DNA of 64,000 nucleotides. Origin: Escherichia phage vB-Eco-KMB43. The notes beneath the pieces are model-generated. The model saw only the letters and a program-made list of their open reading frames with translations, searched no databases and was not told where the DNA came from. Shown here piece after piece: positions 43,761 to 60,776 of the stretch. The DNA is taken from sequence record OR525698.1; one strand, given 5' to 3'. How positions within the stretch are numbered: position 1 is the first letter of the stretch; each line of letters opens with the position of its first letter. Position numbers and translations under genes: made by a program.

Positions 43761-43789
43761 AGTATAGGGGATCACCGATCCCCTGTCAA
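43761..43789 (-). promoter_or_regulatory. promoter-hairpin cassette (TTGACA, hairpin GGGGATCGGTGATCCCC as spacer, TATACT)
   Basis: 17 nt palindrome exactly fills the spacer. Confidence 0.5.
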
Positions 43790-46059: not shown

Positions 46060-46088
46060 ATTATACGGGGATTTCTCCCCGTGTCAAC
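46060..46088 (-). promoter_or_regulatory. promoter-hairpin cassette (TTGACA, hairpin CGGGGAGAAATCCCCG, TATAAT)
   Basis: same hairpin as at 25905-25920. Confidence 0.55.
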
Positions 46089-51446: not shown

Positions 51447-51869
51447 TTATTGGTCTACCTTCAAAACAACCGCCGACATTTTACCCGCCAGTCGTTTTGG
51501 ATTCTCTATAATCATTCGACAGCATAGACCGTGATACGGCTTGCCGTCTTCAATTAGGTCTACTGTCATCCCGATCCACATGTTACCGTCAGTAATTTCT
51601 AATCGATTAGGTCGGTCTTCCATTTTCAGGAAGTCGAAGATCTCCGGCAAACGAGTTTCTATCTTATTGAATAGTTCCATTGTCTTATGTTCATCGATAT
51701 GACGATCGGTTAGACGGTCGATCATATGCGGACTAAAGCGAATAAAAATATACTCACCATAACCATCATTCAAACACTTTTCTTTGATCTGCGCATTGGT
51801 TTTGCGCATTTCGGTTTCGAAGAATCTACGCAGCTTACTACGGCGAACATGTACGTTAATTGTTTCCAT
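51447..51869 (-). CDS. regB: RegB site-specific endoribonuclease
   Basis: RRSKLRRFFE, RLEITDGNMW, CRMII..RLAGK align with T4 RegB; ATG at 51869. Confidence 0.8.
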   Translation of the reverse strand: METINVHVRRSKLRRFFETEMRKTNAQIKEKCLNDGYGEYIFIRFSPHMIDRLTDRHIDEHKTMELFNKIETRLPEIFDFLKMEDRPNRLEITDGNMWIGMTVDLIEDGKPYHGLCCRMIIENPKRLAGKMSAVVLKVDQ

Positions 51870-51873
51870 TTTA

Positions 51874-52209
51874 TTATCCTTTCTTAAACAAATTGCGAAT
51901 CCAGTATACAAACGGGATTTCTTTAAACTTGAACTTGTCAATAGTTAATTCTTTAGTAGCAAGATGAATACCATAAGCATCATGTGTAACTATATGCCAT
52001 TTTCTATAGTCCAAATGTGAACAACCGTCTGGATCTAGGTTAATAAGAGTTTCTCTCTCACTAGGATTATTTTTCCACAATTTTGTAATAGGATCGCACA
52101 TAATTCGACCTAGCGTACCATGAATAATCTCACAACGGTAAAGTTTTCCAGCAGTGAGATAGGCGCACCCGTCATAGTCGGTATAAACAAACACTTCTTT
52201 AACACTCAT
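51874..52209 (-). CDS. paralog family C member (about 111 aa)
   Basis: DPDGCSHLDYRKWHIV shared with 52270-52706; ATG at 52209 after promoter-hairpin cassette. Confidence 0.4.
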   Translation of the reverse strand: MSVKEVFVYTDYDGCAYLTAGKLYRCEIIHGTLGRIMCDPITKLWKNNPSERETLINLDPDGCSHLDYRKWHIVTHDAYGIHLATKELTIDKFKFKEIPFVYWIRNLFKKG

Positions 52210-52240
52210 TTTAATACTCCTTTGTTGTTTCGATGGGGGT

Positions 52241-52269
52241 ATATTACTACCCCCGATCATGTGTGTCAA
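52241..52269 (-). promoter_or_regulatory. promoter-hairpin cassette (TTGACA; TAATAT in loop of GGGGGTA/TACCCCC stem)
   Basis: same architecture as family at 60748-60776. Confidence 0.45.
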
Positions 52270-52530
52270 CTACTTTTTCAAGATTTTTTTGATTGCATTC
52301 CAAAGACCTTTATTTCCAGGTTGTTTTGGTTCTTCGATCAGTGTCCATGTTCGACCGTCTAAGTGTGCACAATTTTTAAGACAAATAAAAATCTGGTGTC
52401 CCTTATCATCACGGATATAACCACTATTCGCAAATCTTTCATGTGGTGTATATTCATACAGTGTATTAGGTGTAATATACTTGCGGTTACTATAAGGTGT
52501 CATCACATACATCATGGTACTAACTCCCAA
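52270..52530 (-). CDS. paralog family C member (86 aa)
   Basis: YEYTP...GYIRDDKGHQIFICLKNCAHLDGRTWTL. Confidence 0.4.
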   Translation of the reverse strand: MGVSTMMYVMTPYSNRKYITPNTLYEYTPHERFANSGYIRDDKGHQIFICLKNCAHLDGRTWTLIEEPKQPGNKGLWNAIKKILKK

Positions 52531-52706
52531 TTATCACCGCGAAGATGAGAACATCCACCATCAAGAAGGATCGTAATACGATAACCTATATCATCTTTGA
52601 TGTAACCGATTGTCGGTGGATTTTCGTAGTCTCGTGTCGGGGTAAAATCATACATCTTTCCTGGCGTAATATCTTGTCCTTTATTGCTATTGGTATAAAC
52701 TTTCAT
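52512..52706 (-). CDS. paralog family C member (64 aa)
   Basis: YDFTP...GYIKDDIGYRITILLDGGCSHLRGDNWEL. Confidence 0.4.
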   Translation of the reverse strand: MKVYTNSNKGQDITPGKMYDFTPTRDYENPPTIGYIKDDIGYRITILLDGGCSHLRGDNWELVP

Positions 52707-52727
52707 TTTCTTAATCTCCTATATTAA

Positions 52728-53426
52728 CTAACCACGGGTATAGTGTTCCAGAACAACTGTCAGATGAATATATTCTAATAAATCTTTCCAAAAGTCAACA
52801 TCTGGTTCTTCCGGCATACCGTTTTTCTTTGCCTCTTCACGAGCGAGTTTAACACGCTCGTAGAGATCTTTCAATTCTTCCCGCACATTATCAAAGGTTC
52901 TTTCTCCTAACTTACACGCTAAAATAGAAGAACGTCGCGCGAGCGGGAATTGTAGATCACCTGTCTGATAGATTTCAAGTAGCTGATAACCAACACGCAG
53001 AGCATGAGAAAGATCTTTCCAGTTACTGAAATACTTTTCAGATTTGGCTACCTGCTTTTTGAGATAGCCAGACAAACCCCACATACCAACATGATAGAAT
53101 TTATCTCGATGTGTTCGGATGTATTCCCATTCTCTGGAGGATTCAATCAACATGTTACTAGGAGCGTGCACCATGTCAATAGCGCCGATATCGCCTTTAC
53201 ATGCCAGATTGATAAACCGTTTTAGACTGAACATATTAACATCAATATCGTCTTTGGTGTTCTTGATACCTTGACCGCTAGTGCTTTGGTCATAGTGTTC
53301 TTTCATCGATCCTAAGATAATTTCTTTCGCAGTCGGAACAAAGATACCACGATAATCTTTATCGGAATTTTCAGTATCAAGGCCGTATAAGTGAGATCCG
53401 AAGACCATTTTAACCATTGTATGCAT
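52728..53426 (-). CDS. polymerase-beta superfamily nucleotidyltransferase (232 aa)
   Basis: N-terminal FGSHLYGLDTENSDKDYRGIF fits the GS-x(9-13)-DxD minimal NTase signature. Confidence 0.55.
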   Translation of the reverse strand: MHTMVKMVFGSHLYGLDTENSDKDYRGIFVPTAKEIILGSMKEHYDQSTSGQGIKNTKDDIDVNMFSLKRFINLACKGDIGAIDMVHAPSNMLIESSREWEYIRTHRDKFYHVGMWGLSGYLKKQVAKSEKYFSNWKDLSHALRVGYQLLEIYQTGDLQFPLARRSSILACKLGERTFDNVREELKDLYERVKLAREEAKKNGMPEEPDVDFWKDLLEYIHLTVVLEHYTRG

Positions 53427-53512: not shown

Positions 53513-53929
53513 TTAGAGAGATTCGGTAAAGGTACGAGCGATAACATCACGTTGCTGGTCTGGAGTCAGACTATTGAAGCGCACTGCGTAACCAGAAACG
53601 CGAATTGTAAGCTGCGGGTACTTCTCAGGATGTTCAACAGCGTCCAGCAACATTTCTCGTAACAATACGTTAACATTCAAATGCTGACCACCTTCGACAA
53701 CCGGAGCACCATTATCTACAATCACCGGACGGAAGCTAGTTGTGTGCAGTGCCAGCGAATCGACGTCTTCTGCGGTGATCACATGGTCTTCTGCGAAAGT
53801 TTTACTAACAATTACTTTAGCGCCGATCAGTGCTTTCGGTTCGGATACCAGAATCATAGGCGCGAAGTGTCCACCAATAATAGTACCTTTATGTTCACCT
53901 TTCATGATTTGAATTGCTTTAAATTCCAT
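53513..53929 (-). CDS. grcA: autonomous glycyl radical cofactor, GrcA/YfiD-like
   Basis: C-terminal [11 protein letters not shown]...[39 protein letters not shown] is near-identical to E. coli YfiD. Confidence 0.85.
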
Positions 53930-60715: not shown

Positions 60716-60747
60716 TTTGATTCTCCTTTCGTTTGTTTGTGGGGGGT

Positions 60748-60776
60748 ATCTTACTACCCCCGTTTCATGTTGTCAA
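60748..60776 (-). promoter_or_regulatory. promoter-hairpin cassette (TTGACA; TAAGAT in loop of GGGGGTA/TACCCCC stem)
   Basis: same architecture. Confidence 0.45.

Follow-up and report, generated by a model that had tools for sequence, protein, structure and literature searches.

Much of the so far unexplained gene content of T-even phages consists of small early genes, and many such genes prove to be host-takeover or anti-defence factors. In phages RB49 and phi1 small ORFan genes are arranged in cassettes with PeSL elements, each of which combines a strong early promoter with a terminator and serves as a recombination site shuffling small genes (Arbiol et al. 2010, PMC2839356); the three genes described below and their paralogy are not mentioned in that paper. 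Small phage proteins with a barrel fold are represented by Gp54 of phage Bas11 (PDB 9AXB, PF25180), which directly triggers the defence protein CapRel(SJ46) (PMC11578894). The barrel of Gp54 has six strands, and its beta1-beta2 loop is long. The family considered here is already present in the PHROGs catalogue as phrog_6261 and phrog_15978, both entered without function, fold or name.

The DNA analysed (the window) comprises 64,000 nucleotides of Escherichia phage vB-Eco-KMB43 and belongs to a Krischvirus, an RB49-like T-even phage (97-98% identity). Over the 2.1 kb surrounding the three genes, here called orfA, orfB and orfC, 58 records including RB49, Phi1, JSE and GEC-3S were 97-98% identical to it. 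The gene order on the minus strand is vs.6, nrdC.11, orfC, orfB, orfA, regB, vs.1, vs, and the genes of interest are as follows.

53513-53929, minus strand: vs.6 homologue, a GrcA/YfiD-like autonomous glycyl-radical cofactor (Pfam Gly_radical, 1.5e-16)
52728-53426, minus strand: nrdC.11-like nucleotidyltransferase (Pfam RlaP, 3.4e-14; phrog_388)
52512-52706, minus strand: orfC, 64 aa, acidic (pI 5.0), predicted SH3-like domain alone; RB49p097
52270-52515, minus strand: orfB, 81 aa, predicted SH3-like domain followed by the basic amphipathic C-terminal tail LWNAIKKILKK; RB49p096
51874-52209, minus strand: orfA, 111 aa, predicted SH3-like core at approximately residues 5-75; RB49p095
51447-51869, minus strand: regB endoribonuclease, directly downstream of orfA (Pfam REGB_T4, 1.5e-48, and RB49 annotation)

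All three RB49 counterparts are annotated as hypothetical proteins. The stop codon of nrdC.11 and the start of orfC are separated by 21 nt, and orfC is preceded by a Shine-Dalgarno sequence with GGAG. For orfB two starts are in use: ATG at 52515 in several GenBank records and TTG at 52530 in some annotations. The ATG is the likelier one, since it has a GGAG Shine-Dalgarno sequence in front and overlaps the orfC stop codon (ATGA). The corresponding slot in T4 is occupied by vs.3, vs.4 and vs.5, which are unrelated to the three genes.

An earlier note on this DNA had described three consecutive small ORFs just upstream of regB as a locally amplified paralog family, and had proposed to check this by alignment, HMM search and structure prediction. 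The ORFs are indeed present on the minus strand at the coordinates listed above, with the start of orfB corrected to 52515, and the orfA stop codon (51874-51876) lies 4 nt from the regB ATG (51869). Pairwise similarity between them is significant. In BLASTP comparisons orfB and orfC aligned over 63 aa with 40% identity (E=1e-13) and orfA matched orfC with E=4e-4; the match of orfA to orfB (E=0.002) was confined to the C-terminal motif. A family HMM, built from 101 stand-alone members collected in an exhaustive search and leaving out orfA and orfB, recognised orfC at 8e-26, orfB at 7e-24 and orfA at 6.5e-15. The same relationship is apparent from PHROGs, where phrog_6261 was matched by orfA (1.1e-37), orfC (4.4e-27) and orfB (5.5e-6), and phrog_15978 by orfB (2.5e-60, its best PHROG) and orfC (8.2e-9). 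No fourth family member was found in the 64-kb window, the next best ORF scoring E=0.09 with the family HMM, and tblastn agreed. Judged by these profile and alignment scores, the window holds exactly three members, which are true paralogs. Local amplification was also borne out: the window contains three diverged tandem copies, and most of the other phages examined have a single copy.

The motif proposed in the earlier note, Y.(Y/F)TP...GYI(R/K)DD.G..I.I.L...C(S/A)HL.G..W.L, stands in full for orfB and orfC and does not hold for orfA. The latter retains LTAGKLY and GCSHL...W.IV, and the GYI-DD-G hairpin of the other two is replaced in it by a longer segment, RIMCDPITKLWKNNPSERE. A signature of approximately 60 residues, [IL]T.GK.Y ... 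I.DD.G ... I.L..C[AS]HL...W..V, describes all three, orfA lacking its I.DD.G part. Of the three paralogs orfA is the furthest diverged, and it carries a C-terminal extension of about 36 aa with the basic amphipathic helix YWIRNLFKKG at its end. orfC represents the family in its minimal form. A similar basic amphipathic helix ends both longer paralogs, at residues 70-81 of orfB and 99-111 of orfA:

52270-52305, minus strand: tail helix of orfB (tail pI 10.7)
51874-51915, minus strand: tail helix of orfA

The basic tails of orfA and orfB have pI values of 9.5-10.7. The same kind of tail was seen in a few distant family members (P0016, P0024), and the orfA/orfB tail is suggestive of a common add-on module.

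When 1.84 billion representative proteins were searched with a profile of the family, 337 clusters were returned at E<=1e-3, most of them of 58-75 aa. In a word-indexed search of 5.8 billion proteins all names were "hypothetical protein" and no precomputed Pfam domain was attached. The family is represented in Vibrio phage helene 12B3, in Klebsiella phage VLCpiM12a and in numerous contigs from viral metagenomes. Some longer proteins (P0018, P0021, P0025) repeat the domain two to four times within a single chain, and fusions were found to DUF3850/ASCH (5e-16; PHROG 'RNA-binding protein'), to Z-alpha (1.2e-4) and, weakly, to a Tad2-like domain. Among the longer family proteins (n=32), 29 match phrog_6261 and 28 match phrog_15978; PHROGs therefore divides into two entries what the HMM presents as one family. 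On profile evidence the three genes and both PHROG entries are one family, spread over hundreds of clusters in unrelated phages.

Searches of Pfam and NCBIfam with the three ORFs and the family consensus gave nothing over threshold, and a PDB sequence search with the family profile gave no match. DUF6501 (PF20111), itself without known function, was matched weakly by the family consensus (E=0.002, 18.4 bits), by 4 of 50 members and by the longer protein P0018 (E 0.008); all these matches span about 27 residues and lie under the 23.8-bit gathering threshold. orfA also matched NCBIfam FosA models at 13-19 bits over some 20 residues, where the cut-offs are 180-305 bits, and these matches were rejected as noise. 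In unrelated phages the homologues are placed among small early or replication-region genes, and no conserved gene neighbour was found in these neighbourhoods. Further loci were retrieved with the consensus as query (1 locus) and with a narrower alignment (14 viral loci); two nearby copies were seen in 2 of 15 further viral contigs (L021, L026). No family member was found in positions 1-76,000 of T4, regB region included. Literature searches with the locus tags, PHROG identifiers and DUF6501 found nothing, and none was found reporting a binding partner, expression data or a phenotype for any member.

Structure prediction pointed to an SH3-like fold. The AlphaFold2 model of orfC (mean pLDDT 85) is all-beta, with main strands at residues 2-4, 33-37, 43-47 and 61-63 and a short helical turn at 53-55. 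For orfA the core was predicted with pLDDT 85-91, the hairpin replacement and the C-terminal 36 residues being less confident. The models have five strands and a 3-10 helix and superpose on SH3 domains, so that the domain of approximately 60 residues is predicted to be a five-stranded SH3-like beta-barrel in which a 3-10 helix precedes the last strand. Matches in BFVD were uncharacterised phage proteins throughout, and the nearest folds are binding modules. The likeness to SH3, SH3b, KOW and Tudor barrels is one of predicted fold, with no detectable sequence relationship: no SH3-type Pfam family (SH3_1, SH3_3 and others) was matched at E<=1 by the three ORFs or 50 family members. Canonical SH3 domains are marked by the signature ALYDY/WW/P..Y, from which the signature of the three genes differs. 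Their products also differ from these known barrels in being stand-alone cytoplasmic phage proteins without signal peptides.

Column conservation among the 101 members is highest at Y19 and W60 (101/101 each), followed by T14 (98), K17 (96), C52 (94), I36 and D39 (93 each), H54 (91), G16 and G41 (88 each) and L55 (85). In the orfC model the turn from strand 33-37 to strand 43-47 is made by DD.G, and the 3-10 helix ahead of the last strand by C-[AS]-H-L; in SH3-like barrels positions of both kinds are structural. The signature would then mostly encode the fold, that is, the core strands, the DD.G hairpin turn, the C.HL 3-10 helix and the invariant Y19 and W60.

Within the 60 nt between orfB and orfA, an AT-rich tract leads to TTGACA, which is followed after 17 nt by TAATAT and then by AAAGGAG and the orfA ATG. 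By the published definition this region fits a PeSL cassette, its promoter and terminator activity being predicted by promoter scan and RNA folding:

52210-52269, minus strand: PeSL-type cassette between orfB and orfA (promoter scan and RNA hairpin)
52269-52264, minus strand: predicted -35 element TTGACA (promoter scan)
52246-52241, minus strand: predicted -10 element TAATAT (promoter scan; 10 of 12 consensus matches)
52254-52235, minus strand: GGGGG/CCCCC stem-loop overlapping the -10 element (centroid -15.5 kcal/mol, MFE -16.8, z=-3.06)

The hairpin of this region is labelled as a terminator in phage G37-3. A near-identical PeSL copy is present at 60741-60776 and similar copies at 46067-46087, 43767-43789 and 2798-2832, all on the minus strand; such repeats are probably behind the two to three places at which each record was hit by megablast. 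Ahead of nrdC.11, in the 86-nt spacer that separates it from vs.6, there is a terminator-like hairpin (53503-53479) and a promoter-like site (53485-53457), both on the minus strand. We infer from this arrangement two early transcription units, nrdC.11-orfC-orfB and orfA-regB. The first would be led by nrdC.11, with translation of orfC and orfB coupled via the ATGA overlap; the second would be driven by its own early promoter in the PeSL, from which regB is probably co-transcribed with orfA.

This locus has much in common with the PeSL and ORFan cassettes of RB49 and phi1. It comes from the same phage group and orfA has a canonical PeSL in front; the three genes, like the cassette ORFans, are small, of unknown function and varying between close phages. 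Unlike those ORFans they are not orphans, since their family extends over hundreds of clusters in unrelated phages.

Variation was analysed in ten Krischvirus genomes with pairwise Nei-Gojobori dN/dS, which was 0.11 for orfA, 0.21 for orfB and 0.25 for orfC, and 0.03 and 0.04 for the flanking nrdC.11 and regB. All three genes are under purifying selection, and these values indicate that they are real and selected. Overall positive selection was rejected by the same numbers. orfA, nrdC.11 and regB are nearly invariant; orfB and orfC change faster than the flanking genes, and alleles of both are diverse. orfC varies at 11 positions, most of them in predicted loops. Of orfB there are two alleles differing at about 30 of 81 residues, and its dS of 0.45 against approximately 0.10-0.15 in flanking genes implies that an older allele was brought in by recombination. 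In phage FL04 orfC is frameshifted (L016 1401-1581), the frame ending after 31 aa and the annotated remnant being 41 aa, an indication that the phage can do without orfC in the laboratory. Two of the three genes, orfB and orfC, therefore behave as exchangeable, dispensable accessory genes. For the three genes an arms race is suggested only by the allele diversity.

A metagenome scaffold from ENA (L034) contains a chimera at 45-296, in which the N-terminal half of orfC is joined to the C-terminal half of orfB allele 2. It stands in for the two genes, orfC and orfB, upstream of orfA-regB, an assembly artefact being possible. The crossover lies within a patch of about 19 nt that codes for GYIKDD and is near-identical between the paralogs, which overall share 40% protein identity.

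Overall, the finding is real and cleanly explained: a phage domain that is widespread, uncharacterised and predicted to have an SH3-like fold has been amplified locally to three copies. We favour, as somewhat better than an even bet, the reading that the three genes are anciently diverged tandem paralogs of a phage-specific SH3-like domain acting as early, non-enzymatic, stoichiometric binding modules. Paralogy, the breadth of the family, the predicted class of fold, purifying selection, the diversity of alleles and the regulatory anatomy are shown, and the statements on fold and evolution are well supported; the functional statement, an early and non-enzymatic binding module, stands at evens or slightly above, early expression, protein binding and absence of catalysis being inferred.

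The three genes belong to a hyperplastic, PeSL-punctuated early region of the Krischvirus genome, and in the proposed mechanism their products would most probably bind host or phage proteins early in infection. Protein targets are preferred over general nucleic-acid binding because the domain is acidic and stand-alone and its second and third strands are joined by a variable loop, and because single chains with multiple copies occur and no conserved gene neighbour was found. The copies have become specialised: orfC as the bare acidic domain, orfB with the basic amphipathic tail, and orfA through its remodelled hairpin, long tail and tight linkage to regB. The divergence of alleles, the exchange between paralogs and the loss of orfC on occasion are in keeping with accessory genes that are dispensable and become adapted to targets that vary. 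Against this explanation, the ASCH/DUF3850, Z-alpha and weak Tad2-like fusions and the basic tails would be equally in line with a role related to nucleic acids.

That role can be put more specifically: the proteins could be RNA- or nucleic-acid-binding accessory factors of KOW, Tudor or Sm type, with orfA possibly serving RegB as its partner or regulator in an antitoxin-toxin-like arrangement. We regard this as unlikely, with some weight left to it. Besides the fusions and the tails, it draws on the juxtaposition of orfA and regB, which is invariant in the ten Krischvirus genomes, orfA itself being nearly so. It draws also on the GGAG present in the Shine-Dalgarno sequences of all three paralogs (52707-52727, 52516-52530 and 52210-52225, minus strand), GGAG being the motif cleaved by T4 RegB in early mRNAs. 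With this motif in place and regB directly downstream, the orfA, orfB and orfC mRNAs may be RegB targets. However, the domain has a net negative charge in 87% of members (median pI 4.7), and no regB-like gene lies beside the homologues in other phages. T4 regB works without a family member in the 76 kb of T4 searched, and the linkage is confined to one phage genus and may be a historical accident.

There is a small chance that the proteins are distant relatives of Bas11 Gp54, i.e. small barrels that engage sensors of host immunity, CapRel among them, in the role of trigger, decoy or inhibitor, with the tandem copies as arms-race variants. Both are dispensable phage proteins of approximately 65 aa and of unknown function (PMC11578894), hhalign aligns G..I.I.L...C.H..G..W.V between the two families, and the diversity of orfB and orfC alleles would be in keeping with such a role. 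The profile comparison was, however, not significant (hhalign probability 5-7%, pairwise E 0.005-0.007). PF25180 was not matched by the family consensus even at E<=10, nor at E<=1 by 50 members including the three genes, and Gp54 itself scored 6.3e-34. The six strands and the other loop layout of Gp54 argue against kinship as well. Equally doubtful is a broader reading, in which Gp54 and the present family belong to a widespread unrecognised superfamily of phage SH3-like mini-proteins engaging host immunity or takeover targets. The three genes would then be a diversifying array, with orfC and orfB as rapidly exchanging specificity variants and orfA co-opted as partner or regulator of the toxic RelE-like RegB.

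The earlier note had suggested a metal-binding or catalytic mini-domain, and this was not supported. In favour of the DD pair, the Cys and the His as ligands or active-site residues, D39, C52 and H54 are each conserved in more than 90% of the 101 members, and conserved Asp, Cys and His are typical metal ligands. However, there is only one conserved Cys and one conserved His, and neither is indispensable in nature: of the 101 members, 7 have Ser for Cys, 4 have Tyr for His and 3 have Phe for His. Across natural members Tyr, Phe or Leu can take the place of His; repeats of the longer family proteins read CAFL, CAYL or CPFL, and one natural Krischvirus orfB allele has CAYL instead of CAHL. The DD pair is absent from orfA, though this is the best-conserved paralog. 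An invariant set of at least three ligands or active-site residues was not found, C52 and H54 being the only candidates, with D38/D39 as possible extras. The model places these residues at the hairpin turn and in the 3-10 helix, within a fold of the binding type, and the profile found no PDB sequence match and no Pfam enzyme or metal-binding family above noise. A small metal-binding or catalytic domain is thus improbable; a metal site formed between subunits is formally possible. Chance similarity, or non-coding ORFs opposite real genes, might be suspected from the short length of the ORFs (64-111 aa) and their lack of Pfam matches, and is refuted by HMM E-values of 1e-15 to 1e-26, dN/dS well under 1, a Shine-Dalgarno sequence at every ORF, orthologues in at least 58 phage genomes and a confident AlphaFold2 fold.

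Returning to the preferred reading of early binding modules, it was already known that these genes exist, annotated as hypothetical, and that the family is catalogued in PHROGs; nothing indicates a new mechanism. The finding is modest, and only two leads, the resemblance to Gp54 and the linkage of orfA to regB, could make it more than that. What has been gained is that three RB49-like "hypothetical proteins" are united into one family with a predictable SH3-like fold, so that a family entry of Pfam type and the search for partners have a defined target. The natural His-to-Tyr allele and the orfC/orfB chimera are ready-made variants for residue testing.

Several records of related phages deserve comment. 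GenBank labels of the type 'putative endoribonuclease / RegB' are attached to orfA orthologues in phages Skers (L012 1897-2235), JK32 (L013 1899-2237) and G2248. We rejected this assignment: orfA gave no BLASTP alignment with the RegB of the window at E<=100 and had no Pfam match. Since orfA has no detectable similarity to RegB, the label looks like a spill-over of annotation from the neighbouring gene. In Pectobacterium phage MA13 an unannotated ORF of 83 aa (L003 2908-3159, plus strand) is clearly a family member (HMM E=2.7e-17), so that the record of this phage lacks a gene call.

The upstream neighbours of the three genes also vary. The nrdC.11 gene of the window codes for 232 aa and adjoins vs.6, and T4 nrdC.11 codes for 336 aa and is located elsewhere in the T4 genome. 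A gene for an HNH homing endonuclease, absent between vs.6 and nrdC.11 in this window and in RB49, is present at that position in phages G37-3, JK32, FL04 and JSE (L011 69-662, L013 69-662, L016 69-662 and L017 137-667).
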